Source: a virus
DNA: 64,000 nucleotides
Virus record (IMG/VR): IMGVR_UViG_3300028269_000003
Span: 2,968-66,967 of that record
Direction: 5' to 3' (one strand)
Made by a program: the position numbers and the translations under genes. Shown here in pieces: positions 1-64,000 of this stretch (position 1 is the stretch's first letter; each line of letters opens with the position of its first letter). Under the pieces are notes generated by a model, which had not been told where the DNA came from, searched no databases, and saw only the letters and a list, made by a program, of their open reading frames with translations.

Positions 1-17
1 GAAGGTAGAGAGGTGGA

Positions 18-332
18 GTGATTATGAGTGACCCAGCGTACCCAAGAGATTTTTTCGATGAAATGTTGAGCGAAAATAGTCCATACGCTTTTTATATATT
101 TCAGTGGGCTAATTATCAAAGTAAAGAATTTGATGGCGCAAGACGTTATCGTTTGAAAATGTTACACGACATTAAACTGTTTGACGGTACTGTGTATGAG
201 CAATGCTATCCAAATGCTGATTCTTTTCACTGTAAAAATAAAATCGTTAAAGATAATGAAGTTGAATTTATCCGCATTAGTCGCAAACAACACTTCCATG
301 AATGGCAACACCCACAAGATTTAAAGGATTAA
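18..332 (+). CDS. hypothetical early phage protein
   Basis: 104-aa ORF with GAGGTGGAG RBS, first of a tightly packed + strand early cluster. Confidence 0.7.
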   Translation: MIMSDPAYPRDFFDEMLSENSPYAFYIFQWANYQSKEFDGARRYRLKMLHDIKLFDGTVYEQCYPNADSFHCKNKIVKDNEVEFIRISRKQHFHEWQHPQDLKD

Positions 333-335
333 ACC

Positions 336-662
336 ATGAACCAACAAGACAAAATCGAGTTAAGCAAGCGCGTTGCTGAAAAGCTTGGGATAGATGCGAG
401 TATTAGTAATACCTATGAAGATAGGTATTTAGAGAATGGGCATTATCAATATGAAGAAGTTACCAATACAACTTGGCTTGCAGATGACGATGCTCGGTGC
501 TTTAGACTAATGATTGATTACGGGATTACATTAAATGGTAGTTTTTGTGGTAGATTTATTTACGCAAACAATCCAGATAATGAAATTGATATAACAGAAT
601 TTACTGATGTTTACGAAGCCACTCGCATTGCAATCTTAAAATGTTTGGAGAATATGGAATGA
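336..662 (+). CDS. NinX-like early phage protein
   Basis: MNQQDKIELSKRVAEKLG...ATRIAILKCL; N- and C-termini nearly identical to 34292..34606, middle different. Confidence 0.65.
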   Translation: MNQQDKIELSKRVAEKLGIDASISNTYEDRYLENGHYQYEEVTNTTWLADDDARCFRLMIDYGITLNGSFCGRFIYANNPDNEIDITEFTDVYEATRIAILKCLENME

Positions 663-1021
663 GTAATTGGCAAGCAATAAAAGAAAACCTACACGGATGT
701 AGTAACCATTCATGTGTGATTAAAAAACCTGTCGGTATGGGCACTAATGGGCAGTGCCACTGCCTTGATGACAGAATAAAACTGCAAAAATTTGCATATA
801 TTCGCAACGAAGAAATTAAACACCAACAATCACGTATTGATGCACTTGAAGCGCAAGTGGCAGAGGCTAAAGCAAAACTTTCTAATTGGAAGCCAACGGA
901 AAAAGAAATTGCAAATTACGCAAGCGTGGAAGAATTATATCTATTTGCCAGTGAAAGTGACTTAATGAGCATTGCTATTGGTATTTTAGAGTTAGTGCAA
1001 ATTAAAATTAATGGCAGTTGA
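659..1021 (+). CDS. hypothetical early protein (Cys/His-rich N-terminus, coiled coil)
   Basis: ORF 641..1021; ATGA overlap with the upstream stop favours start 659; GCSNHSC..GQCHC motif. Confidence 0.65.
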   Translation: MSNWQAIKENLHGCSNHSCVIKKPVGMGTNGQCHCLDDRIKLQKFAYIRNEEIKHQQSRIDALEAQVAEAKAKLSNWKPTEKEIANYASVEELYLFASESDLMSIAIGILELVQIKINGS

Positions 1022-1380
1022 AGCCCTCACGCGCATTAAACAATTACAGGAAGGTGATAAATTATGAAACTATTAAAACTACGCAAGATATTTGCTAAAG
1101 AATCACTCTGTCGCGCACGTAAACGCATCAAGGAGCGTTTAAATCAATCAGCCAATGCTATGATATACGATAGAGTTTTTTATGAAGGCACAGACGGATA
1201 TTTAAGAGATAGGAATTGTTATGGCAAGTGATGGCGGAAAAGGTAGCAGACAAAGACCAACGTTTGATCAAGAACGGTTTGAATTAAATTTCGACCTAAT
1301 CTTTAGAAGTAAGGAAAAAAAGTTTGACCAAACTGTGAATAATGGTGAGTTGCTAGATGAGTTAAAGGAAAGTAGTAAAG
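1021..1380. repeat. shared block A, copy 1 (partner ~34829-35187)
   Basis: near-identical by eye, including a 103-bp exact match 1135-1237 = 34942-35044. Confidence 0.9.
1064..1231 (+). CDS. small basic hypothetical protein (55 aa, MKLLKLRKIFAKESL...)
   Basis: below the ORF-track cutoff; conserved in the second copy 34871..35038. Confidence 0.65.
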   Translation: MKLLKLRKIFAKESLCRARKRIKERLNQSANAMIYDRVFYEGTDGYLRDRNCYGK

Positions 1381-1391
1381 ATGAGCGATGA
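1221..1391 (+). CDS. small phage protein (56 aa, MASDGGKGSRQRP...FELNFDLIF)
   Basis: AGGA RBS; second copy 35028..35195 differs mostly by synonymous changes. Confidence 0.75.
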   Translation: MASDGGKGSRQRPTFDQERFELNFDLIFRSKEKKFDQTVNNGELLDELKESSKDER

Positions 1392-1584
1392 TTGCGATAT
1401 GGCACAAATCCAGATAGAGAATAACGAAAACCGCAGTATTGCTTATGCAAGTATTGAGGCTAACAAACCTATTCAGTTAAGTGATGTGTGTTTATTCTGT
1501 GGAGAAAGTACTGTTGATGGTAGGCGCTGGTGTGATAAGTTTTGTGCAACAGAGTATGAAAAAAGACAGGCATTAAAACGATAA
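1381..1584 (+). CDS. TraR/DksA-like C4 zinc-finger protein
   Basis: N-terminal DxxDxA (MSDDCDMA) plus CLFC...WCDKFC. Confidence 0.7.
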   Translation: MSDDCDMAQIQIENNENRSIAYASIEANKPIQLSDVCLFCGESTVDGRRWCDKFCATEYEKRQALKR

Positions 1585-1677
1585 AAAATCCCCTAGCTTA
1601 TCTCTATATTAGCAGTCTATTGGCTAGGGGTTATCACTAAGGGAGTGATTGAGGCTACATCATTGGAGAGGATGTAG
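1583..1677 (-). ncRNA. three-hairpin element/terminator after the lysis genes; candidate 3'UTR sRNA with anti-RBS loop
   Basis: stems CTACATC/GATGTAG, ATCACT/AGTGAT and CCCCTAGC/GCTAGGGG plus a U-tract on the - strand; all three stems covary with the copy at 35392-35484. Confidence 0.7.
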
Positions 1678-1685
1678 ATTTAACT

Positions 1686-1886
1686 TTAATGATAATTTCT
1701 CTCTAAGTCAAGAATATATTTGCCTAACTTTTCAGCATTATCACGATTTAGGCATATTCCACCGTCATTTTGTGGTATCACTTGCAGATGTGGTTTTGTC
1801 GGCTTTACCATCTGAGGCTGACACGCCGCTACCGAACTTATCAGCAAACCACTGAGCAGGATTTTCACTAAGTTTGTCATGCTCAT
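1686..1886 (-). CDS. outer-membrane lipoprotein, o-spanin (Rz1-like)
   Basis: signal peptide with lipobox VAAC, Pro-rich; overlaps 1765..1959 in another frame at the end of the lysis cassette. Confidence 0.65.
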   Translation of the reverse strand: MSMTNLVKILLSGLLISSVAACQPQMVKPTKPHLQVIPQNDGGICLNRDNAEKLGKYILDLERNYH

Positions 1887-1959
1887 TTTGAGCCTTTCTA
1901 AAGCTAATCGCTTGCAGTAGCTTTTCAAATAGACGCAGGATGATTTCTAGCGTTTTCAT
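1765..1959 (-). CDS. putative spanin partner (Rz-like position)
   Basis: overlaps the lipoprotein gene; conserved in copy 2; amphipathic rather than strongly hydrophobic N-terminus. Confidence 0.5.
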   Translation of the reverse strand: MKTLEIILRLFEKLLQAISFRKAQNEHDKLSENPAQWFADKFGSGVSASDGKADKTTSASDTTK

Positions 1960-2144
1960 TTTTTCAATTGCTTAGTACGCCATGCAGACCATACTAAACC
2001 GCCAATAGTGAGAACCGCACCTGTGACAGCCTCTACTGCGCCAGATACGGCATCAGGTTCGATGTAACCTTTAGTAACCAAGATTGCGCCCAAAGCAGTT
2101 AAGCCGTGACGAATGATAGAGCCGATAATAACTGTTAATTCCAT
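1956..2144 (-). CDS. putative holin (2 TM, Pam3-gp28-like)
   Basis: IIRHGLTALGAILV...GGLVWSAW + basic tail; next to endolysin. Confidence 0.7.
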   Translation of the reverse strand: MELTVIIGSIIRHGLTALGAILVTKGYIEPDAVSGAVEAVTGAVLTIGGLVWSAWRTKQLKK

Positions 2145-2147
2145 GAT

Positions 2148-2618
2148 TTACTCCTTAAAGTGAATAAGACATTCTACTGTACGATTAACCCAACCTTTGC
2201 CAAATCTGCCAAAGTTACTCAGGCTAGAATAAAACATAATGCGCTCGGTTGTAAATTTTAGCAATACATCATCTACTGACATTTTGTTTAGAGCAGATTG
2301 CGAAAGTCTGCCCCACTGACCATCTGGATTAGTTTTAACAGCAGTCTGCAAGATACGTACTGCACGGCTAATACCAGTATTAACAGCGCAATCAAACAAA
2401 ACGCAATGAATAGACGGATGTAACGCAGAAGGCAGTTTATCCCAATAGTCACGCTTGTATATAGCGATAGCATCATCTTTAGTCAGCTCTTTAATTTTTA
2501 GTGAAGGATAGGCACGTTTAGAGATGCCGTATTTAGTTTCACCGCCAGCATCTTGAGGGTCATTAACATATCCGCCTTCATGCTTTAGTACAAATTGAAC
2601 TGCTTTGTCAAAGTTCAT
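2148..2618 (-). CDS. endolysin, glycoside hydrolase family 108
   Basis: HEGGYVNDPQDAGGETKYGIS, FDCAVNTG, FGKGWVNR motifs. Confidence 0.92.
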   Translation of the reverse strand: MNFDKAVQFVLKHEGGYVNDPQDAGGETKYGISKRAYPSLKIKELTKDDAIAIYKRDYWDKLPSALHPSIHCVLFDCAVNTGISRAVRILQTAVKTNPDGQWGRLSQSALNKMSVDDVLLKFTTERIMFYSSLSNFGRFGKGWVNRTVECLIHFKE

Positions 2619-2862
2619 ATTTAAAGTTTCTTCGATTAAAAATATACTTAACGCTCATGCCGAACGAAAATAATAATTCAGCTACCGTCACTATATGATT
2701 CTGCAAAACTGACACAAACAGAAACATTGCAGCCATCGCAAAAAATAGATGATAAAAATATATTCCGTGACTTGTCGATTCATCCATTTTATTTAAACAA
2801 TAAATGCAATGAATAATAACGTGGATGGTGGATAGGATAACTAATAAATTAATTAGATTCAT
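2608..2862 (-). CDS. membrane protein, holin/antiholin candidate (about 3 TM)
   Basis: hydrophobic 84 aa immediately upstream of endolysin. Confidence 0.6.
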   Translation of the reverse strand: MNLINLLVILSTIHVIIHCIYCLNKMDESTSHGIYFYHLFFAMAAMFLFVSVLQNHIVTVAELLFSFGMSVKYIFNRRNFKYEL

Positions 2863-3146
2863 TTTTTAATAAACCAGTTAAATTGAATTTTCTCAGATGC
2901 TTTTATGATTAGCGGAACGGTATTTAGTGCCGTCAATCCGACTGCAAACGCTAAAGGGAAATGCAAGTTTTCAGGCAATGAAACGTAATAAAGAATCGCT
3001 GGCGTTCCATAATTCGCACCTACTGCCCCTGTAAACACAGCAGAAACGGCTTGAGGCGTGTTTAATCCTTGAATGAAGCGTAAAGATGCTACGCCACCAA
3101 AAAAACCAGCTATTAAATAGCCAGCTTTAATACCGTACTCTGTCAT
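2859..3146 (-). CDS. putative holin (about 3 TM)
   Basis: LIAGFFGGVASL...GAVGANYGTP...AFAVGL; first gene of the lysis cassette. Confidence 0.65.
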   Translation of the reverse strand: MTEYGIKAGYLIAGFFGGVASLRFIQGLNTPQAVSAVFTGAVGANYGTPAILYYVSLPENLHFPLAFAVGLTALNTVPLIIKASEKIQFNWFIKK

Positions 3147-3196
3147 GTTCTTTCCTTTTTGTTATTCCTTTAACCTATCTTTGTAGGCTATATCAA

Positions 3197-3475
3197 TTAT
3201 AGTTTTGATGCTTCAATAAATAATGCGTCTAGCATTTCATCTGTTAATCCCAATCCACCAGCTAATCCATAAACTAAGAATGAATCTCTCTCAACATTAG
3301 ATGAAAATTCCCATTCAATTTCCGCTTTTTCTCTCTGTTCTTTTATTGGCATTAAAGAGATTGTTTCATCAACCAAGTGGAGTAACCCCTTGTTATAGAG
3401 AGCTAATCTAGCCTGTCGCATTGAAACTGACTTAGGGACAATGACTGGCTCAGGTTTTATCTTAATCAAGCTCAT
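3197..3475 (-). CDS. tail-fibre-associated small protein
   Basis: SVSMRQARLAL...IEWEF...LDALF motif; homologous to C-half of 38372..38776. Confidence 0.7.
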   Translation of the reverse strand: MSLIKIKPEPVIVPKSVSMRQARLALYNKGLLHLVDETISLMPIKEQREKAEIEWEFSSNVERDSFLVYGLAGGLGLTDEMLDALFIEASKL

Positions 3476-3738
3476 AGTTTTTGTTCTCCTATCCCATCAG
3501 TTAAATCTGATTCTTCAACATACCATCTTGAACGAAACTTTTGGTCAATATTAGGGATTCCATGTTCATTAAATGTTCCATCTAATGGCAACTCTTCAAT
3601 GTTAACAATTTTATATTTTCTTCCTAAAGGAACAGATTTTTTTGCAATCGTGTTAATGTCATAATCTGACAGAGCTTGTTCTGTTGGGTAAACAATACTA
3701 ACGCTATTAACATCGTTATTATAAATAATTACTTGCAT
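3472..3738 (-). CDS. tail fibre assembly chaperone-like protein
   Basis: IAKKSVP.G..YKIV...ELP...FRSRW motif directly after the fibre gene. Confidence 0.65.
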   Translation of the reverse strand: MQVIIYNNDVNSVSIVYPTEQALSDYDINTIAKKSVPLGRKYKIVNIEELPLDGTFNEHGIPNIDQKFRSRWYVEESDLTDGIGEQKL

Positions 3739-3747
3739 ATTTTATCC

Positions 3748-5244
3748 TTAACCAAAAATAGCCACTGTAACAATGTTTGGGTCAACAGCCGCTCCAGTGT
3801 TTGCAACCGTAGTCGTAAATCTAAATGCAGAGGTAGTCGGCGCTGCTGAAATGTTACATACCCTATTAACCCCGCCGGTAGTTTCGCCAGTAAGGGCAAT
3901 TCCTGAATAGTTAGCATCTGGCATAGCTGTCGTAAAGTTTACAGTATAATCGCCAGTGTTATTATCAGTAATGCTAGAAACATTGCCAGAGCCGTTAATC
4001 GCAACCGTGCCAGAACCATTAAATCTTACCCATGCTCGGCAAGCAAACATAGGAGCATCACCTAATGCGTTTAATGCTGTTGAAATGTTAGATTGACCGC
4101 CAGCAGGAGCAACTCTAGTCGGTGCTGTTGCCCATACGCCAGCAGTAGCCTGAGTGATTCTAATATACCCTAATACACGATAAGCAACGTTACTTCGACC
4201 TGTTGTTGAATAGGCAACTAATGCACTGTCTGACCCTGTGCCGACTGTTGTGGTAGATATTAGACCTGATTCATCGAGGTTAATACCACCGGCAACGTTA
4301 ATAACTGCCGCCTCAATCGTTCCTGCATTGTTGATAGCCAATACCGCCAATCTAGCCATAGTAGCGTTTGCAGTTCCTAAAGTAGCCGTATTTGGCACAA
4401 CAACCGTTGCCGCAGAGGATAAAACAACGGTTTCAGGCGTTCCATCTGTTAGTGTTGTTGAGCGAAATTGTAAAGTGCAAGGATTTACGGTAATCGTTAA
4501 AGCGTTTGCAGCAACTGATGCATCAATGTCTTGCAAAGGTTTAAACCGCAAGTTTGTAGCCAGTTTAGTTTCTGTAACATTAGCATCTGCTATCTTTGCT
4601 GTGGTTACGGCATTATTTTGTATCTTGTTGGTAGAAACTGAATTATCCGCTAGATTTGTTGATTGAATCAAAAATAAAGAAGTATCAACTGGCGTAATTA
4701 AACCTAATTCAACTCTAGTCAATCCAGAATCTAATGCGCCACTATCTAAAACAACTGTGATTGTAGTCAATGAAGTAAAAACTGCATTTGAAATATAGCC
4801 ATACACAGTGCCAGCCGTTACGGTAGCCCTAAATCGTCTGTTAATTTGATATTGTGTTGTTTGGTCGCCGGGCAAACTAAAGCTCGTACCTGAAATATAA
4901 GTAGGCGTAATGCCGTAATCCACCCATTGAGATAGCGCAACCGTAGCATCGTTAATACCAGTGATGTTGTCTATCGTTCTGATTGGGCTAGTTGGCGGGT
5001 CTGTATCGTCAGAAGGGGCAAAAACAAACTTGTATGACGCACCTTCCGTTAACCAAATAGGTTGTGCAGGCTCCCCTCTAGAATCTAACACGATAGGATT
5101 AGGTTGCTGTGTAATGCCAGCCTCATCTGTAAAAGTTGCTTGTTTAGTTGAGCTTCCTGCAACATAAGTGAATAGCTTTGCACCGTTTGCAGGGATGCCA
5201 TTAATTAGCTGTGCGTCATTAAAAATCGGTGCGAGCTTTGCCAT
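3748..5244 (-). CDS. podovirus tail fibre / receptor-binding protein
   Basis: N-terminal particle-anchoring domain (GAKLFTY.AG..NPIVLDSRGE), VTxAKIAD repeats, C-terminal CRAWVRFNG..NVSSITD..TGDYTVNF tip domain. Confidence 0.85.
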   Translation of the reverse strand: MAKLAPIFNDAQLINGIPANGAKLFTYVAGSSTKQATFTDEAGITQQPNPIVLDSRGEPAQPIWLTEGASYKFVFAPSDDTDPPTSPIRTIDNITGINDATVALSQWVDYGITPTYISGTSFSLPGDQTTQYQINRRFRATVTAGTVYGYISNAVFTSLTTITVVLDSGALDSGLTRVELGLITPVDTSLFLIQSTNLADNSVSTNKIQNNAVTTAKIADANVTETKLATNLRFKPLQDIDASVAANALTITVNPCTLQFRSTTLTDGTPETVVLSSAATVVVPNTATLGTANATMARLAVLAINNAGTIEAAVINVAGGINLDESGLISTTTVGTGSDSALVAYSTTGRSNVAYRVLGYIRITQATAGVWATAPTRVAPAGGQSNISTALNALGDAPMFACRAWVRFNGSGTVAINGSGNVSSITDNNTGDYTVNFTTAMPDANYSGIALTGETTGGVNRVCNISAAPTTSAFRFTTTVANTGAAVDPNIVTVAIFG

Positions 5245-5273
5245 TTTATTTCCTTTTAAAATTAAATAATGTG

Positions 5274-5282
5274 TGCTATGTT
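5274..5282 (+). promoter_or_regulatory. extended -10 promoter (TGcTATGTT) for an antisense leaderless ORF
   Basis: TGn + TATGTT ends 7 nt before ATG 5289. Confidence 0.4.
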
Positions 5283-5288
5283 ATAGAA

Positions 5289-5366
5289 ATGAACATTAGC
5301 CCAATACAATTAGGTGCAATTATTGTATTTATTTTAATTGCCTGCATTTTCAGAGGTCGCTCCTAA
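5289..5366 (+). CDS. 25-aa single-TM peptide MNISPIQLGAIIVFILIACIFRGRS, antisense moron
   Basis: fills the gap between ejection gene and tail fibre; hydrophobic core plus basic tail. Confidence 0.45.
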   Translation: MNISPIQLGAIIVFILIACIFRGRS

Positions 5367-7382
5367 TCCAAGAAGTATGCCTATTGGTGCATTTTTAGTG
5401 GATTTAACCTTTACTGGCTTAACAGTTATCCCTTTAACTGGATTAAGCGCATTTCTTGATTGCGTTGCCACGATTACATCTTTTGCAGGGTCTGAAACTA
5501 AAGCGCCTCCAAAAGGAATTTTCCTAATAATTGCACTGTTTGCCACTTTATCCAACATTGACATAAACAAAGCAGAGCTTGTGTTTGAGTTATTTACTGC
5601 AGAACCTGTCGGTTGGAATTTCTCATAGCTTGAAACCCTACCAATAGCTTTAAGCATTTTAATATCTTCTGGCGTAAAGAATAAATTCATCTTTTCATCC
5701 CCAATACTTTTTAAAGCATCGTTATAGCTTTTGGGCGAAAAGTTAGCAACTTCATCAGCGCTTCCACCTGTGGCTTTATTTTTTAAATACGCTAGAATCT
5801 GACCTTTAACAGTAGTCACAGCCTCTTTATTGTTACCTAGTGCTTCACGTAACGCGGCAACATCAGCAATATTAGATTTGTTTCCTGAGCCTGTAATGTA
5901 AGTCTGCACAAACTTATCAGGCTCTACTCCATCTCTAACGGCTTTTAATGCAGGTGTTTTTTCTACTATCTGCATATAGTTTCTGTTAGCTGAGCGCGCT
6001 TTATTAAATGCATCAATAGCAGTTTTCCCTTGACCTTCAAGTAATGGCGTATTTTCTAAAGCCTCCCTTACTTTACCTAACGCAAGTCGTTCTGCGGGGT
6101 CTTTAGAGCTTCTTTGTAAAGTACCTAGATTCGTTTTTAATTGCTCTGCAACATCTACTGTGAAAGGTATTTCGCCTTTAGCGATAGCATTTAATTTGTT
6201 GCGAACATCACTAGAAATTTTACTTCCAAGTAGCGCATCATCTAATAAATTGTTAGCTGTTTGAGTAAATGTATAAGGGTCTAATTGTGCGCTTCTACCT
6301 GTTGTTTCTCTAGCTTGCTTATAATAAGAATCTATCACTTTTTTAGTAGCAGAATCTTTAATGTTAAGAACATCAATAATTTTTGCCCCAGCCGTAGCCG
6401 CGTCATCAGAACTGGCGCCAAGTGTATTTAGATTTGTGATTAACTTAACATCATTATCACGTTGCAAATTAGCCAAACTCTGAATTGCAGGGTCTTTGCT
6501 ATTCGCCGCCATCTTTGCTAGATTTCTTTGCGCTGTTATTTCTGCTGGATTAAGTGTAAGGCTTGAACTCATTGGAGTTAACCCTGTTAACTTATAGTCA
6601 GCTAATCTACGCAAAGCATCAGGAGATAAGTTGTCGCCAGTTTTCATAGCGGCGTTAACATCTTTAATCATTGAAGATTTTACTTCGTAAGGAAGTCTGT
6701 CTAAATTAACGCCTGCTTTAGTGATTGCTTCAAAAGCTCTATCATCTGCTGTACTACCAACGATATTACGCATAGTGCTTGATATGCTTTTTCCTGCGCT
6801 TTCAATAGCAGACACTCCTATTGGCAATCCAAGCCCACCTGCAACAGACGCGGCAACTTGAACGCTAGGGCTTGCACCTTGTTCTCTAGCTTCACTTCCT
6901 GCATATCCAGCGCCAACTGAGCCTGCTGCTTGCAATCCAGCATTCTTAGATAAACTGTTTAATACATATTTAGAAATCGTAGATGATGCTAGGTTAGCTT
7001 GATTAGCTGCGCCTCCAATGATACCGCCAGTTCCAGCTAATAGTTTAGAAGCCTCTGCAACGTTTCTTTCCCTTCCAGTTTCAGGTGAAGGAAATCCAGC
7101 GCGATTCAAGAGGCTTGTTGTTGCTTGCCCTAGTGGTTTTAATTCAGTTCCAAATGCCAAATTAGAACTAGCCGCCAATGGGTCTGCAATAATCCCTAAC
7201 GTATTAGCCGCGCCTTCTGCAATATACCTGCCAGTTAATCCTAATTGACGACCAAATGTTTCAACAGGCGTTCTTTCAATTTGAGGTTGCTCAACTGTTG
7301 GCTGTTCGATAGGTTGAGTTTGCGCTTGGTACTCTTCCCAAGGCTTAATCTCAGCAGTTTTATATTCTTCCCAAGGCTTCAT
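5334..7382 (-). CDS. DNA ejection/internal virion protein (P22 gp16 position)
   Basis: large Ala/Gly-rich helical protein, KPWEEY repeat at N-terminus, third of the ejection trio; TAATG coupling. Confidence 0.75.
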   Translation of the reverse strand: MKPWEEYKTAEIKPWEEYQAQTQPIEQPTVEQPQIERTPVETFGRQLGLTGRYIAEGAANTLGIIADPLAASSNLAFGTELKPLGQATTSLLNRAGFPSPETGRERNVAEASKLLAGTGGIIGGAANQANLASSTISKYVLNSLSKNAGLQAAGSVGAGYAGSEAREQGASPSVQVAASVAGGLGLPIGVSAIESAGKSISSTMRNIVGSTADDRAFEAITKAGVNLDRLPYEVKSSMIKDVNAAMKTGDNLSPDALRRLADYKLTGLTPMSSSLTLNPAEITAQRNLAKMAANSKDPAIQSLANLQRDNDVKLITNLNTLGASSDDAATAGAKIIDVLNIKDSATKKVIDSYYKQARETTGRSAQLDPYTFTQTANNLLDDALLGSKISSDVRNKLNAIAKGEIPFTVDVAEQLKTNLGTLQRSSKDPAERLALGKVREALENTPLLEGQGKTAIDAFNKARSANRNYMQIVEKTPALKAVRDGVEPDKFVQTYITGSGNKSNIADVAALREALGNNKEAVTTVKGQILAYLKNKATGGSADEVANFSPKSYNDALKSIGDEKMNLFFTPEDIKMLKAIGRVSSYEKFQPTGSAVNNSNTSSALFMSMLDKVANSAIIRKIPFGGALVSDPAKDVIVATQSRNALNPVKGITVKPVKVKSTKNAPIGILLGLGATSENAGN

Positions 7383-8632: not shown

Positions 8633-8641
8633 GATGATTCC

Positions 8642-20694: not shown

Positions 20695-20695
20695 G

Positions 20696-56128: not shown

Positions 56129-56130
56129 AA

Positions 56131-57360
56131 TCATATTCCCATGATTTTAGTTCGCATTATACTGCGAGATTGTATTGGATAGCGATACGCAATGAAATAG
56201 GTAGCACTATCAATTACATGGTCAAAGCCTGATGTTTTGTCTGGCTCGCCATTTTTATCGTATGCCTGACGCTCTAATGCTTCAACAAGTGAAGGGCAAG
56301 TGTCAGGATTAACACGATATTTTCTTGATTCTATCATGGAATTTGCAGATAAAACTCTATCTTTTACTGCTGGGTTTGCGTTATTTACTAAAATATTAAA
56401 TCCATGATGCCGCAAAATAGCTATGTCAGATTCACTGGCATTTTGTGATTTACGGCTGTTGCCACTTGCATCAGGATAAATATAAATGGCATGGCCTTTA
56501 TCTTTGTACCGTTCTTTTAACATTCTTGCGATAGTTGGGGTGTCAAAAACGCCAGTATATTCTTTGACTGCGTGCGGTTCGTTATTACGAAGAACATGAA
56601 TGACTGCACTCATGTTGGTCACGTTAAAGTCCATGCCAATATGCAATGGCTCACCATCTTTTATCGTTTCAAATGTTTCATTTAGCTTGCGGTCAAATGT
56701 TGGATATACTGAACCTGCTGTTAAGTTTACAAACTCACCATCAAGATAAGCTGATAATAGATTGCTTGGGTATGTTTTTTTTAAGTTTTCAATGTAATCA
56801 GGCGGAAGATTTATTTCATTTTCATAAGTGCTAGCTTTGTAAATAACATAGCCGTCTTTTTTTTCTTTTACCCATCTATCGTAAACAAAGCGATAGCCTT
56901 CTGGAGTTGTTGCCACTGCAACGGTATTTTTAATGCCGCACTTTTGGCGATTACGAGCGATTACTTTATTCCAGACTTCTCTGGCTTTTTCTTTTTTAAG
57001 CGTATCAAGTTCATCAAGTATTGAGTGTGCAACTTCATAACCTACTATGCGTTCTGGGTTTTCCATTGTGCGAAACAATATGCGACCAGCGTTAGGAAAC
57101 TCAATGTAAGATGATTGACGATTAAGTTTATATGCCCATTGTTTACGCTCGCACAGTTCTGGAAAGCGTTTAAAGGCAATATCTTCAACAAGTGGGTAAG
57201 TAGGTAAGTAGTAAGCAATGTCACAGTCTTTAAACATAGACTTAAACATCATCGCTCTAGCTATTGCGGCTGCTGTTTTTCCAGAGCCAAAGCCGCCAAC
57301 AAATGCAGGAAAAGTTTCAAATGATGTGGCAAATGCTTTTTGTGTCTGTGTTAATGCCAT
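56131..57360 (-). CDS. terminase large subunit
   Basis: Walker A GGFGSGKT, LDELD, TTPEG, GMDFN, YPDASG, DH..D...Y; different family from 18591..20027. Confidence 0.95.
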   Translation of the reverse strand: MALTQTQKAFATSFETFPAFVGGFGSGKTAAAIARAMMFKSMFKDCDIAYYLPTYPLVEDIAFKRFPELCERKQWAYKLNRQSSYIEFPNAGRILFRTMENPERIVGYEVAHSILDELDTLKKEKAREVWNKVIARNRQKCGIKNTVAVATTPEGYRFVYDRWVKEKKDGYVIYKASTYENEINLPPDYIENLKKTYPSNLLSAYLDGEFVNLTAGSVYPTFDRKLNETFETIKDGEPLHIGMDFNVTNMSAVIHVLRNNEPHAVKEYTGVFDTPTIARMLKERYKDKGHAIYIYPDASGNSRKSQNASESDIAILRHHGFNILVNNANPAVKDRVLSANSMIESRKYRVNPDTCPSLVEALERQAYDKNGEPDKTSGFDHVIDSATYFIAYRYPIQSRSIMRTKIMGI

Positions 57361-57734
57361 TAAACAAAATCATCAGGCGATACGTTTGGCAATTCACTAA
57401 GAGTAACACTTGCTGCAACTTCTTGCTTATCTGAATAGCCATGTTTAGTTAAAATTAACTTAGTTATAGTTGAATTAAAATTGCCTTTTAGACCTTCATT
57501 TAACAATTTAGATTCTTGCAATTTCATAATTCCGTCTAAAATGTTCTGAAATTCTTCAGACTGTTTTGCATATTCATAAATATTATTTCTACCTTTTTCA
57601 GTATAACAAGCCAAACCAGCAATAGATGGTATAACTTCACCTACTGCTTCATAACCGCCATAAAGATATTCTTTAGCTTTCTCTAATGTTTCAGCTAATT
57701 GGCTTGGTCTACCTACTTTATTTTTTTGTGTCAT
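57360..57734 (-). CDS. terminase small subunit
   Basis: GRPS...PSIAGLA..Y...L.G.FN..I.KLIL..HGYSDK. Confidence 0.85.
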   Translation of the reverse strand: MTQKNKVGRPSQLAETLEKAKEYLYGGYEAVGEVIPSIAGLACYTEKGRNNIYEYAKQSEEFQNILDGIMKLQESKLLNEGLKGNFNSTITKLILTKHGYSDKQEVAASVTLSELPNVSPDDFV

Positions 57735-57739: not shown

Positions 57740-58018
57740 TTACCTAATCATTCTCATGTCATCTTCAAATTTGCCTTTACATAAAGCAAAAGCATCATCC
57801 CAACGCATTTTATATTCTACATTGTTTTTATATTGCTCATAGTCTTTCATAAATTGGTCATAACTGCCACCTGCTGCACGACCACTAGCACACCCATGTT
57901 TAACTGCGTCTATCAATTCTTGCGGTGCGCCTTGAGCTTCACCAATTTGCTGAATCCTGTCACCTAACGACACACATCCTGTCAGCATCATAACTGATAA
58001 TAATATTGTTGTTTTCAT
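57740..58018 (-). CDS. lipoprotein
   Basis: MKTTILLSVMMLTGC lipobox; GCASG..Y...W.D.F..C; ATTGGAGA RBS. Confidence 0.8.
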   Translation of the reverse strand: MKTTILLSVMMLTGCVSLGDRIQQIGEAQGAPQELIDAVKHGCASGRAAGGSYDQFMKDYEQYKNNVEYKMRWDDAFALCKGKFEDDMRMIR

Positions 58019-58041
58019 TTTAATCTCCAATGATTAAATTT

Positions 58042-58223
58042 TCGCTATTAAGACTGCGCCATAGTTTGGGCGAACCCTACAAATCTATCGCTTTACAATC
58101 CAACGTAATGTTTAGTGTTGCCACAGGTTGCGACTACCTACCCATACTCGCTACGTCTGTGTCTGTTCTAATCTCAGAACGATGGCTAGGTCTATGGCAT
58201 CTCACAGCATCCGCTTTCAGGTA
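58042..58223 (-). ncRNA. two structured RNA modules (homologs of 21086-21146 and 21148-21271)
   Basis: conserved ends, different interiors, covarying stem. Confidence 0.6.
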
Positions 58224-58228
58224 TATCT

Positions 58229-58258
58229 ATTATAAACATTATTTATAAATTATTTCAA
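58229..58258 (-). promoter_or_regulatory. sigma70-type promoter for the ncRNA array, copy 2
   Basis: TTGAAA-18-TATAAT. Confidence 0.7.
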
Positions 58259-58259
58259 A

Positions 58260-58484
58260 CTAATTAATCAGACTAAGCGATTTTAAATTATGCTTATCTC
58301 TACATAAATCATAATGCAAATCTAAAAGTGCTATGGCCTTGCTAAACTTAGGCTCGTATATCTCATGCCTTGCTAAATGCCCGATACTTTGAGCATCTAT
58401 GTTAGTTTTTTTAGATATTGCTTCATAAGTTAAACCAGCATTACGAAGGTTTAAGATTATTCTTTGATAATTAATTTTAATCAT
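58260..58484 (-). CDS. small HTH DNA-binding protein
   Basis: near-identical to 21308..21532. Confidence 0.75.
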   Translation of the reverse strand: MIKINYQRIILNLRNAGLTYEAISKKTNIDAQSIGHLARHEIYEPKFSKAIALLDLHYDLCRDKHNLKSLSLIN

Positions 58485-60679
58485 GCGAATAAATCCTGTG
58501 TCTGCTTGCTTAGTTCGTTGATATTCTTAACAGCTTGCTCAAAATATGACTTTTTGAGTTCACTACCAATAAACCTACGCCCCATTTTAACGGCCGTGTA
58601 ACCTTCGCTACCAACTCCCGTAAACGGACTAAACACTAAATCATTAGGTGCAGTCCATAAATCTAAGGCGCGTTCAATAACATCAAGCTGCAATGGGCAT
58701 ATATGTTTTACATCATCATCTTCACGCGCATCACGAAAGTTTAATGTTCTCGATTGGTCAATATCAAACCATACTGGGCTTGCGTATTTCTGCCATTTTT
58801 CAACTGGAAACTCTTCTGCTGTATGTGATACAGGGTGAGGATTAACGCCATCTTTACGCATAATAACAAGATAATCTGCTAATCCTTGCCTACTCATTGC
58901 GCTGTCTTTTTTAATCGTTTTATGAAGCAATCCAAGCGCTTTAGTGCGCTGCATTGCGACTACTGGGTCTTTCCATATACAAACTTCACTATGATATATC
59001 CATCCTTTTTCACAGAATAATCTAATCAACTCACCGCGAAAATCACGAATGCCGATAAACCCATCATTTACTTTGCTAGTAGGCAAGTTCATGCAATGCA
59101 CAGCCATCAATCTGCCTGGCTTTGTTATTCTTAACATTTCATCTACCAAGTAACCAAAGTGCTGATAAAAGTCTGAATGGGTTTTACTGTTACCCATATC
59201 GCGGTCACTGTTTGAGTAGGTAAACAATGAAGCAAAAGGCGGTGAGTAAATTGTAAAGTCTATGCTATCTGATTCAATCTCACGCGCTAAATCAATACAA
59301 TCTGCGTTATGCACAGTCCAGCCATCGCCATGATATACATCACGCACATAATCATCTTTTTCAAGAATTGCGCCAAATACTTCTTTTTTCATTGACTCGC
59401 TCATATGTTTCACCATCTCCATGCCCATTTGATTATTCTGCTCTTCTTTGCGTTTAATGTTAGCAACTACCGCGCCTTCTGATTCTGCACTTACTACGTG
59501 TACGTTGACTTCTTTTTCTTGACCGAAACGATAGAACCTGCGAATAGCTTGATAATACTGCTCCCAACTGTCTGATAAACCTACAAAAACAGTGTTATGG
59601 CAATTTTGAAAGTTCATGCCAGCACCTAGAATTTTAGGCTTGCTAACCAATACGCGCAGATTGCCATTTAAAAAGTCATGCACTGTTTTTTCTTTATGCT
59701 CAATAGTATCTGAACCTGACACATCAACCGCGCCATTAATTAACTTGCATAGCTTTTCAGCCTCTTCGTTACGGTGACACCATAAAACAAACTGCTCATC
59801 GCTTGCATTTACAATTTCAGCAACTTTAGCCACGCGGTCATCTATTGATTCTTTACGTGCTTTGTTACGTTCGAGCAAGCCAGTAGCAATATCAGCAAAT
59901 AAGTCAGTAGTCGGTTCTGATTCAACTACGTGTTCAATCATGTTTAATGGCGGCAATATATAAGCACTACCATCAAAACCTAAATCAGCAGGGCTTCGGA
60001 TAACAACTGACCATGTAGCTAACCATTCCCAAAATTTAGTGCGACCATGCCCTTTTAATATCCATGTTCCAGTATCGCCAGCATCATTGATAAAGTAAGT
60101 AGCTAGCATTTCAGCCATTCCCATAATGCCTAAAAACTCGCACTGGTTGCCTAATTCCATAAAGTCATTGGGTGAAGGCGTAGCAGTACAACTCAAACGA
60201 TATGGCACTTGCTGACACGCTTCAATCATTGAATTTCTAGTTTTTCCGTCACGGTTTTTTAAAATGCTAGACTCATCAAGTACAACGCCTGCAAATTCTG
60301 ACAAATCAAAATGCTCTAGCATTTCATAGTTTGTGATATTGATTCCGTCTTTTATATTTTCACCGCTACGGCAATAATGAATATCAATTCCAAACTTCTG
60401 CCCTTCTCGCACTGTTTGTTGCGCTACGCACAAAGGCGCAAATATAAGCACGTTGCCATTAGTGTGATTAACAACTTCCTGCGCCCATGAAGTTTGCATT
60501 AAAGTTTTACCAAGTCCAGTATCAGCAAATATAGCTGCACGACCTCGCTTTAATGCCCACTTAACAATTACACGCTGGAAATCAAACAAGTTAGAATTAA
60601 GTGCATTTTCATCAACGTCAAATCCGCTAATGATTGGGACTATTTTTTTTGCCTCTATAAATTCTTCGTATTTCATCAT
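58481..60679 (-). CDS. fused SNF2-like helicase / DNA amino-methyltransferase
   Basis: DTGLGKT, LDESS, TATPSPND, RFGQ then SPPF and PFTGVG in one frame. Confidence 0.9.
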   Translation of the reverse strand: MMKYEEFIEAKKIVPIISGFDVDENALNSNLFDFQRVIVKWALKRGRAAIFADTGLGKTLMQTSWAQEVVNHTNGNVLIFAPLCVAQQTVREGQKFGIDIHYCRSGENIKDGINITNYEMLEHFDLSEFAGVVLDESSILKNRDGKTRNSMIEACQQVPYRLSCTATPSPNDFMELGNQCEFLGIMGMAEMLATYFINDAGDTGTWILKGHGRTKFWEWLATWSVVIRSPADLGFDGSAYILPPLNMIEHVVESEPTTDLFADIATGLLERNKARKESIDDRVAKVAEIVNASDEQFVLWCHRNEEAEKLCKLINGAVDVSGSDTIEHKEKTVHDFLNGNLRVLVSKPKILGAGMNFQNCHNTVFVGLSDSWEQYYQAIRRFYRFGQEKEVNVHVVSAESEGAVVANIKRKEEQNNQMGMEMVKHMSESMKKEVFGAILEKDDYVRDVYHGDGWTVHNADCIDLAREIESDSIDFTIYSPPFASLFTYSNSDRDMGNSKTHSDFYQHFGYLVDEMLRITKPGRLMAVHCMNLPTSKVNDGFIGIRDFRGELIRLFCEKGWIYHSEVCIWKDPVVAMQRTKALGLLHKTIKKDSAMSRQGLADYLVIMRKDGVNPHPVSHTAEEFPVEKWQKYASPVWFDIDQSRTLNFRDAREDDDVKHICPLQLDVIERALDLWTAPNDLVFSPFTGVGSEGYTAVKMGRRFIGSELKKSYFEQAVKNINELSKQTQDLFA

Positions 60680-60742
60680 ATCTCCAATGTTTAAACCGTA
60701 ACTTATTATAATTTAATTTTACAATTTATTGCAAACTATTTT

Positions 60743-61090
60743 TTAACATTCAATAATCATTTTCGCTTCATTTCCATATCCGCGCATAATCGTTATAGGT
60801 TCAAATTGCTTGTCATCAATGTTTAATGCTTTGGCTATTCCATCAATGGCAGCTTTACTTGCGCTTAACAGATTATCTAAATCACGTTTACGCTTATCTG
60901 ACTGCATAAAAGTTATTTTTAAAGGTAACGTATCGGCAGGTTTAAATTTTCCGTTTACGCGCTCTGTAAATGCTATTGTGAAGGCTTCTAGCATTACTTC
61001 ATTTTTAATCTTTACTGTTTTTGCCCAATGTTGACCATTTTTGCGATTAGGCATAAGTTCAGAGCGTGGATAACTTAACTCAATAATCAT
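60743..61090 (-). CDS. rusA: RusA-like resolvase
   Basis: one residue different from 23989..24336. Confidence 0.8.
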   Translation of the reverse strand: MIIELSYPRSELMPNRKNGQHWAKTVKIKNEVMLEAFTIAFTERVNGKFKPADTLPLKITFMQSDKRKRDLDNLLSASKAAIDGIAKALNIDDKQFEPITIMRGYGNEAKMIIEC

Positions 61091-61377
61091 AATAAACCTT
61101 TATCTATTAGCCTAAGCTGCGTTTCAATCATGCCTTCGTAATGCGCTAATTTTAAGTCTGTAATGCTTAAATCTGTTTTTAATCGCCTATCAACTGCATC
61201 ATGGCAATTTGAGCAAGCATAAGCGCCATGTATATCTGATACTTTTTGCGCCATGCCATGCCCGAACCTAACGCCATTTATGTGAGCAAATACTACGGTT
61301 TCGTTATTGTGATTGCATATATTAGGCAATCTGATTGTGCAACTTTCACCTTTTGCGCTTTGTGTAATTTTACTCAT
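61087..61377 (-). CDS. DUF1364/YbcO-like protein
   Basis: one residue different from 24333..24623. Confidence 0.8.
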   Translation of the reverse strand: MSKITQSAKGESCTIRLPNICNHNNETVVFAHINGVRFGHGMAQKVSDIHGAYACSNCHDAVDRRLKTDLSITDLKLAHYEGMIETQLRLIDKGLL

Positions 61378-61739
61378 GATAAACTTTCAAAGTAAAATCC
61401 ATTTTCAGCAGCATATCGCAAGCAATTTTCCATATAAGCCGCCATTTCTGCCGTGTTAAGTTTAGCGGTGCTTAGTAGCCTTTTATGGCTTTCACCGTCA
61501 ATCTCGGTTATCTCGTACAAAAACTTATACCGTAAAATGTCATGCGAGAAGTCTTTATCATATCCAAAGTGATTGCCAAATTGCGTTACAAATTCCCAAT
61601 ACAGTGCATTTGCGTTTTGGCTGCGTTTACTTTTACGCTCTGTTACATTAGCAACATAATCACCAGTTTCAACAAGCTGTGTTACCTTGCTTATGAAGTT
61701 AGGTAGATTGTGTTTAGATAGGTGAAAGTTTTTAATCAT
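61374..61739 (-). CDS. NinB/Orf-family protein
   Basis: near-identical to 24620..24985. Confidence 0.75.
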   Translation of the reverse strand: MIKNFHLSKHNLPNFISKVTQLVETGDYVANVTERKSKRSQNANALYWEFVTQFGNHFGYDKDFSHDILRYKFLYEITEIDGESHKRLLSTAKLNTAEMAAYMENCLRYAAENGFYFESLS

Positions 61740-62365
61740 TCCGCAAACAATCCAAAATTAACTGGCTGCTGTATATTCATAGAACAATTTAAAATATGTA
61801 AACCTAGCTCTGGGTCTACCATGTTACGCAATGCTTTTCGTTTGTCTTTGATTTTCGTTTTATCAATATTAAATCCATAAACTTCACCATAACCTTTTAT
61901 TTCACTGTGTTTTCTATCATCAGTTACTTGAAATCCATGAATATTAAAATTACACCAATAATAATGCCTGTGAATTTCTGCATCAGGCGGTATTAATGGC
62001 GTGTAATATGGCTTAACGTTTTCAATAACAAATTTACATTGAACCGGCGCAAAGTTTTTAAGCAATATTATTTCTTGATACAAGCTCATGTCAGGATAAA
62101 CCGCCTCGTATTGACCAGCATGAACTCCACACCGCCTAATATCTGAATGACTTGGGCATGGTGGACTTGACCAAATAAAATCAAATTCTTTGTAATGGTT
62201 AAGCAAATATTCGTGAGCATCGGCAACGATTACCTTGTCATTAGGAAAATATGATTTATAAACGTCAGACGTTGCCTTGTCATACTCAATAGCGGTTATA
62301 TCATGTTCATCACCCCATAACTTCCGATTTCCTCCAATACCAGCATACAAATTTAATATTTTCAT
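61736..62365 (-). CDS. compact DNA cytosine-C5 methyltransferase
   Basis: LYAGIGG (motif I), SPPC (IV), IENV (VI), RN.V (X). Confidence 0.85.
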   Translation of the reverse strand: MKILNLYAGIGGNRKLWGDEHDITAIEYDKATSDVYKSYFPNDKVIVADAHEYLLNHYKEFDFIWSSPPCPSHSDIRRCGVHAGQYEAVYPDMSLYQEIILLKNFAPVQCKFVIENVKPYYTPLIPPDAEIHRHYYWCNFNIHGFQVTDDRKHSEIKGYGEVYGFNIDKTKIKDKRKALRNMVDPELGLHILNCSMNIQQPVNFGLFAE

Positions 62366-62367
62366 TT

Positions 62368-62556
62368 TCACTCTCCACAATGTTCTCTATGCAACTCAAT
62401 CAACTTAGCCCCTAGCTTATAGTTTATGTCAGTTTTTACGCCATATCGTGCCATTTTTTGCAGCCTGTAAGGTCTAACGTTAATCTCTCTAGCTATCTTT
62501 GCTAGTGGCTTATAGTTGCGTCTAAGCTGAATTAATATTATTTGCCAATTAACCAT
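62368..62556 (-). CDS. small HTH protein
   Basis: homolog of 25162..25353. Confidence 0.7.
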   Translation of the reverse strand: MVNWQIILIQLRRNYKPLAKIAREINVRPYRLQKMARYGVKTDINYKLGAKLIELHREHCGE

Positions 62557-62974
62557 CAACAACCGCTCCCAATGCCTCACGCGCATAACGTAAACTAATT
62601 TCAGGATATGCGCTAGGGTTAGCAATTATTTTGCGTGCCCACGCTTTCATATCTCGTTTAGGCTGCGTCATTTTTTCTACCGCCTCTTTTACTTCCATTG
62701 CATGACGGTGATTTTCAGCTTTAGCCAACGGACTTGGTAAACGTGCAAAGATTGTAGGCTTTGGCTTGCATAATTCAATGATGTCTTTAACAGTTGGAAA
62801 GTGTTTACTTGAATCAACCCAAGCATCAAAAGCACCGCTAACAGTTTTTAAATCATATTCGTTAAGCTTTGAAAACCAGTAGCGCAAAGTGTCTTTATCA
62901 AATTCTCGATGACTAAAACTTGAGCATACAATTTTCATCATTAAAGCAAATTCTTTTTTGTCATTGTCAGTCAA
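62549..62974 (-). CDS. putative helicase loader/replication accessory protein
   Basis: homolog of 25343..25768; C-half near-identical. Confidence 0.65.
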   Translation of the reverse strand: MTDNDKKEFALMMKIVCSSFSHREFDKDTLRYWFSKLNEYDLKTVSGAFDAWVDSSKHFPTVKDIIELCKPKPTIFARLPSPLAKAENHRHAMEVKEAVEKMTQPKRDMKAWARKIIANPSAYPEISLRYAREALGAVVDG

Positions 62975-63651
62975 AATGGCTCTCCTTCAATTTCAGCATC
63001 AGGCTCATCTTTCCATCTCCCCTCATTTAAATATGTTGTTGGATTAGGTATATATCCATCACGCCATTTTTTACTTTCTATTTGCCATGACAACGCAAAC
63101 ATAACATCGTCAATTCTAGGTTTTTTAGATTGCCATATTTTTATTGCTTTATCTTTTCCTACTTTTTTTGGATAAGCTTTCCAAAAAACATCAAAATCTG
63201 AAATTGATTTTTTAGTCACTATATTTGAATCAGGAATCAATGAATCAGGAATCAATGAATCAGCAGGAGTGAAACTGTTATTTAACGGTTTATTAACGGT
63301 TAAACCGCAAGTGCTTGAATTTTCATCAAATTTTGGATATACAGAATCTTTTTCAGTATGATGTGGATTTTGATGTTTTTCAAAATTAATAATTTGAATT
63401 AATGCTAAATCTCCAACAATGTAACGATAGATAAACCCTAACCGTGACAACTCGGTTAGATAACCGTTAATATCTACATTTTCACGGTATGGAAACGTTT
63501 CTGCTTTAATCCTTAACGGTCTATCCTCAAGCCTTCCAGCTTTATCAGCTAAACACCAAAGACTTGTAAAAAGAATAGTAAGCATAGGGTCTGCCACCCC
63601 AAGCAATTCATTTTTAAACAATGATGGTTTTATATTTCTAGCGCGAGCCAT
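62971..63651 (-). CDS. replication initiator
   Basis: MARARNIKP..FKNE.L..LW.LAD..GRLEDRP.RIK N-domain; FDVFW.AYPKKVGK..YIPNPTTYLN..RW.DE C-domain. Confidence 0.85.
   Translation of the reverse strand: MARARNIKPSLFKNELLGVADPMLTILFTSLWCLADKAGRLEDRPLRIKAETFPYRENVDINGYLTELSRLGFIYRYIVGDLALIQIINFEKHQNPHHTEKDSVYPKFDENSSTCGLTVNKPLNNSFTPADSLIPDSLIPDSNIVTKKSISDFDVFWKAYPKKVGKDKAIKIWQSKKPRIDDVMFALSWQIESKKWRDGYIPNPTTYLNEGRWKDEPDAEIEGEPF
63226..63303. repeat. putative origin repeats in initiator 2
   Basis: TGAATCAGGAATCAA x2.5 (63226-63263) and TTAACGGTT at 11-bp period (63282, 63293). Confidence 0.65.
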
Positions 63652-64000
63652 TTAAAACCTCCATTAATTCATCTAATGCTTGATTAAACTCACTCCAATT
63701 TCTACAATCTTTTGCAAGTTCTTTTAATTCATCTAAATCAACACCAATTTCGTATGCTGATTTTAGTTTTTTAACTAAAGCATACTCATTGCAATAAGCA
63801 TATCTATTTTTGCATATACCTTTTATGTAATGAATTTGTCTTAAATAATCAGGCTGAGTATTTATATTGCATATTCCACTAATTTTGTTAAATGCTAAAT
63901 TTACACTGTCATAATCGTATGGCTGGTCTTTAACTTCAATTAAATATTTTTTTGATATTTCTATTGAATCTAAAACTACATTTAACCCAAATTTTTTTAT
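63638..64000 (-). CDS. partial CDS (C-terminal 120 aa), possibly an HNH-associated phage protein
   Basis: open frame from the window edge ...YIKGICKNRY...ELAK.CRNWSEF...NGSR*, overlapping the initiator start. Confidence 0.6.
   Translation of the reverse strand: MKKFGLNVVLDSIEISKKYLIEVKDQPYDYDSVNLAFNKISGICNINTQPDYLRQIHYIKGICKNRYAYCNEYALVKKLKSAYEIGVDLDELKELAKDCRNWSEFNQALDELMEVLNGSR

Follow-up and report, generated by a model that had tools for sequence, protein, structure and literature searches.

A viral record with podovirus and siphovirus virion modules is most likely two phage genomes joined at a 127-nt repeat

Does one phage genome encode two different virions? IMG/VR record IMGVR_UViG_3300028269_000003 (66,967 nt, ~38% GC, rated 100% complete) raises this question, since its hallmark genes are duplicated: there are two TerL genes, two portals and two major head proteins. 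The stretch that we analyzed (the window) is 64,000 nt long and corresponds to bases 2968-66967 of the record; 2,967 nt lie upstream. Coordinates below are those of the window unless the record is named. A sequence-only reading of the window had proposed a podovirus and a siphovirus genome joined head to tail, and offered three explanations: a cointegrate, tandem elements or a chimera assembled from two co-occurring phages. Based on our results, we conclude that the record is very probably a chimera in which the assembly merged two separate phages that are mosaically related and come from one river community. The 'double' genome is most likely not a real feature. We refer to the P22-like podovirus part as unit A, to the siphovirus part as unit B and to the 127-nt repeat between them as V.

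The two virion modules are indeed unrelated, as had been proposed. The module of unit A (3197-20265, minus strand) encodes TerL (18591-20027), a 716-aa P22-type portal (16453-18603; phrog_156, 1.2e-131), a scaffold (13894-14721), the major head protein (12664-13878), the head closure protein Hc3 (9834-11468), a DNA-ejection protein (8642-9580) and a tail fiber or spike (3748-5244). PHROGs matched 8 of its 10 large ORFs (E<=1e-5), and no tape measure or tail tube families were among the matches. A P22-like virion is defined here by a large portal, a scaffold, an HK97-fold head protein, a gp10-type closure protein and ejection proteins without a tape measure, and unit A has these features (phrog_156, phrog_8865, phrog_283, phrog_578 and phrog_598). 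The best tblastn matches of its portal are annotated 'phage P22 like portal protein'. All 12 GenBank relatives with this portal type among the tblastn matches listed have genomes of 33.6-38.8 kb, which makes the record about double the length expected of one genome. Among IMG/VR contigs with the same portal type, the four longest are 35.5-37.2 kb.

The rest of unit A comprises early, lysis and small-ORF regions. On the minus strand, the early/replication block (20305-26805; PHROGs matches for 9 of 10 ORFs) encodes a DnaD-like initiator (25768-26433), whose nearest phage matches are in Firmicutes phages, a helicase loader (25343-25768), NinB (24620-25033), HNH (24333-24623), RusA (23989-24336), a helicase (22555-23925), a DNA methyltransferase (21529-22542) and an HTH protein (21308-21532). 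The lysis region (1583-3146, minus strand) contains a GH108 endolysin (2148-2618; Pfam PF05838, 2.2e-24), which scored 44.5% against Acinetobacter phage endolysins in tblastn. The proximal half of the small-ORF block (27085-30974, plus strand; PHROGs and Pfam) encodes a pentapeptide-repeat protein (27085-27642), an AAA_24/Sak4-like protein (28198-29265), SSB (29265-29717), an endonuclease (29768-30193) and a last ORF that ends inside V (30615-30974); these ORFs have no counterpart in the part of unit B present in the record. According to the ORF list and homology, the distal end of this block occupies 1-1021 (plus strand) and begins at record base 1, in a copy of the tRNA-Arg. Phage A would be a self-closing P22-like podovirus of 33,896 nt (record 1-33896).

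Unit B has the organization of a siphovirus. Its virion module (36716-57734, minus strand; PHROGs matches for 9 of 10 large ORFs) encodes the small terminase (57360-57734), TerL (56131-57360), a 473-aa portal (54713-56134; phrog_145, 8.8e-135), a head morphogenesis protein (53661-54713; phrog_241), the major head protein (51948-52916; phrog_247), a tail protein (46719-47915), a tail assembly chaperone (46282-46710; phrog_313), a probable tape measure (44011-45963; weak matches to tape-measure families, E 1e-9 to 1e-6) and a J-like central fiber (39758-42751; phrog_469 and phrog_31). The chaperone before the tape measure, the J-like distal tail protein and the lack of a sheath family among the PHROGs matches, in a scan that covered part of the small ORFs, are the marks of a long siphovirus tail. 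The portal has at most 34.5% identity to any GenBank phage. The early/replication block (57740-64000, minus strand; PHROGs) is cut by the end of the record and encodes a fused helicase-methyltransferase (58481-60679), RusA (60743-61090), HNH (61087-61377), NinB (61374-61739), a methyltransferase (61736-62380), a helicase loader (62549-62974), an initiator (62971-63651) and an open ORF (63638-64000). The lysis region (35394-36680, minus strand), recognized by homology to unit A, includes a homolog of the GH108-type endolysin (35956-36426; 85% aa identity to that of unit A). The distal half of the small-ORF block (31057-34905, plus strand) has patches of 75-95% nt identity to record 128-3988 in unit A. 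About 33.1 kb of phage B would be present, with a few kb missing between the replication genes and the tRNA.

How closely are the two units related? Self-blastn of the whole record and a repeat search recovered all five near-identical block pairs that had been reported, at 84-95% nt identity: 1021-1384 and 34829-35191 (93.4%), 1583-2618 and 35394-36426 (87.8%), 21254-21549 and 58206-58501 (89.2%), 23891-24985 and 60645-61739 (95.2%), and 25147-25782 and 62353-62985 (83.5%). In total there are 15 matches between the units (~5.65 kb, 75-100% identity). Several of these lie in the 2,967 nt upstream of the window, where the sequence-only reading could not see them, and record 1-3988 as a whole is homologous to 30930-34829 (protein pairs 50-96% identical).

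The inference that a podovirus and a siphovirus share one chassis has a real basis but was overstated. Only 21 of the 61 ORFs of unit A have a homolog in unit B, and 14 of the 61 are at least 83% identical in amino acid sequence. RusA, HNH and NinB are 94-99% identical between the units. The replication initiators are diverged (32%), as are the helicase and methyltransferase (37-39%), which are two separate genes in A and a single fused gene in B. In the virion modules, one of 18 unit A ORFs matches unit B (blastp, E<=1e-4), a 92-aa protein with 43% identity. Gene order is alike in both units, and the patches of high identity are flanked by unrelated or diverged genes. By sequence comparison, then, the early and lysis backbone of A and B is a patchwork and not a single common chassis. 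Lambdoid-type phages classically show modular relationships of this sort. We attribute the common blocks, which are real, to the swapping of early, nin-type (NinB-HNH-RusA) and lysis modules by two phages that probably infect the same host. A near-identical NinB-HNH-RusA cassette and an identical tRNA region beside unrelated virions are consistent with modules having been exchanged recently among phages of one host range.

The place where unit A passes into unit B suggests how the two could have been joined. Record nt 1-127 are identical to record nt 33897-34023 (30930-31056, plus strand) at 127 of 127 positions, and the first difference is at base 128. V contains the whole tRNA-Arg(TCT) gene (30980-31055; ARAGORN and Rfam) and 50 nt upstream of it, and it sits inside a co-directional phage operon and is not the 3' tRNA core of an att site. 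No other exact repeat in the record reaches 127 nt; the next longest are 107 nt (24367-24473 and 61121-61227) and 103 nt (1135-1237 and 34942-35044). The longest exact matches had been put at ~100 bp. The 103-nt match is real, and the two longer repeats exceed it; the 127-nt repeat was missed because one copy is outside the window. The JGI metaSPAdes workflow, as its description gives it, uses k-mers of 33, 55, 77, 99 and 127. We infer that k=127 was the last k for this record and that the probable false join lies within an exact repeat of that length, so that the passage from A to B could not be resolved by k-mers. Two circles with a common stretch of k=127 would form a figure of eight in the assembly graph, the same graph that a cointegrate would give. 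The assembler would have gone around the A loop before exiting into B, which could explain why the contig begins exactly at base 1 of the 127-mer.

Two metagenomic data sets bear on whether A and B are physically linked. X1 and X2 are riverine metagenomes of 2019, possibly from one campaign, that we examined as Logan contigs. X1, in which 94% of the query words occur, may have been the source sample of the record and is hence not independent. In X1, a 21,410-nt contig that matches the A-specific stretch 20001-23998 has a depth of 30.8, and a 22,763-nt contig that matches the B-specific stretch 37990-40000 has a depth of 11.4, these depths being means over whole Logan contigs and not from mapped reads; the extents of both contigs beyond the compared 20 kb are estimated from their lengths. 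Stretches exactly shared by the units have depths of 40.3-41.6 (~41.5), close to the sum of A and B. In X2, A-type contigs have depths of 10.1 and 9 and B-type contigs 4.2-4.3. Unit A thus exceeds unit B in depth by a factor of 2.7 in X1 and of about 2.4 in X2. Unequal depth is what had been named as the mark of a chimera.

Closure of each unit into its own circle had been named as a second mark, and we find it for unit A only. A 1,281-nt contig in X2 (record 12, depth 8.29) spans 30707-31056, the end of unit A and V. Beyond V it continues through 405 intervening letters, a piece with 8 mismatches, another 123 letters and a piece with 9 mismatches. Record 533-644 and 768-938, which follow the first copy of V, have 8 of 112 and 9 of 171 mismatches and the spacings 405 and 123; the spacings expected along the path into unit B, 190 and 234, differ from those of the X2 contig. 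Its loose 30-nt end corresponds to record 939, directly after 938. The contig therefore links the end of unit A, by way of V, to the start of the same unit, which closes unit A into a genome of 33,896 nt, although simplification of the k=31 graph could in principle be a source of such a contig. In searches beyond the record, no near-identical unit B contig was found elsewhere.

Could the two phages nonetheless form one molecule? A stable ~70 kb cointegrate, with both virion modules in one replicon, would account for the path that the assembler itself gave and for the collinearity of the units; its graph would be indistinguishable from the one formed by two circles, and recombination genes (AAA_24/Sak4-like, SSB, NinB and RusA) are at hand. 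However, the module depths differ in both metagenomes, the A-to-A junction is present in X2, and the contig does not circularize (in self-blastn, the two ends of the record share no direct repeat of 10-499 nt). Given the 33.6-38.8 kb of relatives with the unit A portal type and the headful capacities of T=7 capsids, ~70 kb would not be expected to fit one head of either type. We regard such a genome as extremely improbable. Two prophages or plasmid-like phages adjoining in one host replicon are also very unlikely. Prophages do occur in tandem at tRNA genes, and the boundary here is at a tRNA-Arg, but the repeat is a whole tRNA and 50 nt within a phage operon, unlike an att core, the depths are unequal and unit A is self-closing. 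Moreover, six-frame searches of the whole record found no Phage_integrase (PF00589), Resolvase (PF00239) or Peptidase_S24 (PF00717) domain, whereas the same searches matched 14, 12 and 10 of 14 control genomes, respectively, and no host gene was seen among the annotated ORFs of both units (PHROGs and Pfam). The reported lack of an integrase and of host genes thus held up. Neither equal copy number nor a site-specific recombinase or att junctions, as expected of a cointegrate or tandem prophages, was found.

In a mixed situation, most genomes of A and B would be free and A-B cointegrates would arise as a minority during co-infection; this is unlikely too, though less remote. Such molecules could form by homologous recombination at the identical tRNA-Arg stretch or at other common blocks and be resolved by the phages' own Sak4-like, SSB, NinB and RusA proteins, a scenario we consider doubtful. 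The depths would permit up to 11.4 of the 30.8 units in X1 to be linked, and in the RusA-NinB block of an A-type contig from X2, all 10 of 10 positions that differ from unit A have the B allele, which could reflect real recombinants. However, popping of k=31 bubbles with both phages present could equally produce this allele patchwork, and no observation requires linked molecules. If such cointegrates did exist, the contig and the X2 alleles would capture module exchange across morphotypes in progress. Chimeric assembly of two phages, favored by V, the unequal depths and the self-closure of unit A, remains by far the better explanation.

The record resembles assembly-graph chimeras and concatemers in that it is ~2x the expected length, has doubled hallmark genes, and has its join and its end at a k-length repeat. 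The CheckV paper describes artefacts of concatenated genomes among IMG/VR contigs, in its account the same genome repeated 2-6.8 times and detected by k-mer frequency. In contrast to those concatemers, this record joins two different genomes and most of its k-mers are unique, so the k-mer-frequency test, as described there, would not be expected to flag it.

The two phages themselves resemble known groups. Lambdoid mosaicism crosses morphotypes: the podovirus P22 and the siphoviruses ES18 and lambda/HK97 share early, nin and lysis modules. A and B are similar in that they have the same gene order, patches of 84-95% nt identity beside unrelated virion modules, and a nin-type region with NinB and RusA (phrog_72 and phrog_34 in both units). 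They differ from lambdoids in the DnaD-like initiator, smaller genomes, riverine origin and ~38% GC, and in that neither an integrase nor a CI-type (S24) repressor was detected, which is firm for unit A only, as B is incomplete. Unit A is also similar to freshwater P22-like podoviruses, including Rhodoferax phage P26218, phage DSL-LC05 and uncultured phages from Manatee Spring. Their genomes (33.6-38.8 kb) match its 33,896 nt, and their portals are 37-43% identical to that of unit A over 82-99% of its length. The relationship is distant, and megablast against GenBank phages gave no nucleotide-level match.

The main value of this analysis is in quality control. A record rated 100% complete most likely consists of two genomes connected through a k-length repeat, and claims about genome size, gene content or 'dual morphology' drawn from it would be wrong. 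There is no support for the head-to-tail join of A and B, and what is most likely left is the ordinary sharing of modules among phages. Both phages co-occur in riverine metagenomes of 2018-2019. They provide a modest, clean example of modules shared between a podovirus and a siphovirus, adding members to a known pattern and not a new pattern.

Both halves of the record carry a complete virion module, and the two modules are unrelated, as the sequence-only reading had proposed and as PHROGs scans confirm. In unit A, the P22-like podovirus part (record 1-33896), 8 of the 10 large ORFs match PHROGs, including the portal (phrog_156, 1.2e-131), scaffold, major head protein, Hc3 head closure and ejection protein. 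In unit B, the siphovirus part that makes up the rest, 9 of 10 large ORFs match, and the module is of the long-tailed type, with a portal (phrog_145), head morphogenesis protein (phrog_241), major head protein (phrog_247), tail chaperone, tape measure and J-like fibre. By blastp, just one of the 18 unit A virion-module ORFs matches anything in unit B. Elsewhere in the unit B head-tail region, a 276-aa protein (49086-49916, minus strand) matches Pfam DnaT_2 (9.7e-40), a putative DnaT-like ssDNA-binding domain. Among the minus-strand genes after the unit B capsid gene, 51370-51894 gave a sub-threshold match to Methyltransf_12 (21.5 bits; cut-off 30), and a Pfam search of 50121-50855 and 50813-51373 gave no match.

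The one protein similarity between the virion modules found by blastp is between a 92-aa protein (3197-3475, minus strand) and a 139-aa protein (38372-38791, minus strand), which are 43% identical over 76 aa and both adjoin tail fibre genes. The pair may be a common fibre-assembly or host-recognition accessory, which would suit a single host for both phages.

Outside the virion modules, units A and B are mosaically related. All of the shared blocks listed in the earlier reading were recovered by self-comparison of the record and a repeat search, at 83.5-95.2% nucleotide identity. The whole-record self-comparison yielded 15 HSPs between A and B with a total length of about 5.65 kb, of which several fall in the 2,967 nt of the record that precede the window. 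Profile searches likewise agreed with the non-structural gene set described there: a DnaD-like initiator, helicase loader, NinB, HNH, RusA, helicase, methyltransferase, AAA_24/Sak4-like protein, SSB and endonuclease, and a GH108 endolysin for lysis. By blastp, 21 of the 61 unit A ORFs have a homologue in unit B, 14 of them with at least 83% amino acid identity. The close pairs include RusA (99%), HNH (99%), NinB (94%), endolysin (85%), helicase loader (83%) and several small ORFs (88-98%). Other pairs have diverged: the initiators are 32% identical, and the helicase and DNA methyltransferase, which are separate genes in A (456 and 337 aa; 21529-23925, minus strand) and a single fused 732-aa gene in B (58481-60679, minus strand), are 37-39% identical. 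The diverged helicase/methyltransferase region is bordered on each side by blocks of 89-95% nucleotide identity. The visible part of B lacks an equivalent of the unit A stretch that runs from the pentapeptide-repeat gene through the endonuclease gene (27085-30974), since the matching region of B falls past the end of the record. The first gene of this plus-strand operon (27085-27642) encodes a 185-aa pentapeptide-repeat protein (PF00805, 7.3e-21), and its DNA consists of 15-nt tandem units, with a 96-nt register in 12 overlapping copies.

The order of the two units in the record depends on a repeat that lies partly outside the window. The first 127 nt of the record are identical (127/127) to record 33897-34023 (window 30930-31056), with a mismatch at base 128, and no other exact repeat in the record reaches 127 nt (the two that follow in length have 107 and 103 nt). 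The repeat consists of a tRNA and 50 nt upstream; the tRNA-Arg(TCT) at 30980-31055 is the sole RNA gene detected, and Rfam at gathering thresholds found no other family in the whole window. The record is thus laid out as repeat, unit A, repeat, unit B, with a unit A period of 33,896 nt and unit B truncated in its replication region at the record end. The JGI metagenome workflow uses metaSPAdes with k = 33, 55, 77, 99 and 127. We infer that the record was assembled in this way; a record that starts on an internally repeated word of length k has the form that would be expected of a path from a branching vertex of the k = 127 graph. In such a graph, two circles sharing the repeat and one cointegrate circle would give the identical figure of eight, so the assembled order across the repeat is by itself uninformative. 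IMG/VR classifies the 66,967-nt record, of which the window covers bases 2968-66967, as linear and 100% complete; a terminal repeat of 10-499 nt was not found in it, and GC content is 33-45% along the whole window.

Contig depths and contig paths bear on whether A and B are joined in nature. Six riverine metagenome runs contain part of window 26001-36000, and the best four of the six (X1-X4) were compared, as Logan contigs, with window 20001-40000. X1 covers 94% of query words and could be the sample from which the record came; X2 may share its campaign. A 1:1 cointegrate predicts equal depths of A and B. In X1, a 21,410-nt contig on A-specific sequence has a depth of 30.8 and a 22,763-nt contig on B-specific sequence a depth of 11.4, and contigs on exactly shared stretches have depths of 40.3-41.6, about the sum of the two. 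In X2, A-type contigs have depths of 10.1 and 9, and B-type contigs 4.2-4.3. X3 and X4 have depths of 0-4; B-specific bins 36676-40000 are nearly without cover in X4, where A-specific pieces are present, but missing cover is not counted as evidence and is not taken to show A in the absence of B. One X2 contig (record 12; 1,281 nt, depth 8.29) spans window 30707-31056, which takes in the end of unit A and the repeat. Past the repeat it diverges from unit B, with 405 and then 123 intervening letters before pieces with 8 and 9 mismatches. These are an exact fit to record 533-644 (8/112 mismatches) and 768-938 (9/171), which have spacings of 405 and 123, unlike the spacings of 190 and 234 on the unit B path; a loose 30-nt continuation was located at record 939. 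The contig therefore fits the sequence after the first copy of the repeat, so that in X2 unit A runs from its end into its own start and closes on itself, whether as a circle, a concatemer or a terminally redundant genome. Self-closure of unit B was not visible among 95 JGI metagenome loci compared with the record by blastn, in which matches were of only 65-82% identity and at most 433 nt.

The sequence-only reading had offered a real joined genome as one of its options and had tied a chimera to unequal depth and closure of the units on themselves; unequal depth and the self-closure of unit A are what was found. Its observation of two modules and shared blocks stands, and we conclude that the A-to-B join is very probably an artefact of assembly. 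Genome sizes of relatives bear on the same question: each of the 12 best-listed GenBank records that carry a related portal is 33.6-38.8 kb long, and the longest IMG/VR contigs with one are 35.5-37.2 kb. Unit A, at 33.9 kb, falls within this range, and the 67-kb record is about twice as long. Given the capacities of T=7 headful packagers, neither head type would be expected to hold about 70 kb. There is a small chance that a minority of the molecules are genuinely joined as A-B. In the X2 A-type contig of depth 10.1, window 24115-24686 has the B base at 10 of 10 positions differing from A (across the RusA-HNH-NinB block, A and B differ at 53 positions), a patch that reflects either real recombinants or bubbles popped by the k = 31 assembler.

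A close copy of either phage was not found in the GenBank phages, IMG/VR or JGI metagenome contigs searched. Megablast of window 3000-27000 and 36000-60000 against GenBank phages gave no match, so there is no close cultured relative against which to check the ends of either unit. In IMG/VR protein searches, the unit A portal had relatives no closer than about 44% identity (21 loci), and the unit B portal had none. Exact IMG/VR DNA searches, which may skip the record itself and near copies, gave no match to the 76-nt tRNA or to a 56-nt stretch of the shared HNH/NinB block. In JGI metagenome contigs, 74 loci match the replication initiator of unit B, the best full-length ones at 55-68% identity. 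Host signals conflict, each indicating a different direction: the endolysin is nearest to those of Acinetobacter phages (44.5%), the initiator N-terminal domain is nearest to Firmicutes phages (57-75% across roughly half of its length), and the portals point to freshwater or proteobacterial phages. In the unit B tail-fibre region, a 41-nt stretch between two genes (38329-38369) is present in X1, X2 and X4 contigs that share identical, unlike flanks on both sides, absent from the record; these may belong to a third relative or to a variant of the tail-fibre region.

A and B are both real phages, found together in the same runs and mosaically related. Theirs is the modular pattern that has long been familiar from P22, ES18, lambda and HK97, except that the record has no integrase or S24 repressor (Phage_integrase, Resolvase and Peptidase_S24 domains were not found in six-frame searches of the record, in which controls gave matches). 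The biology that remains is that A and B are new members of an already known kind of mosaic relationship.
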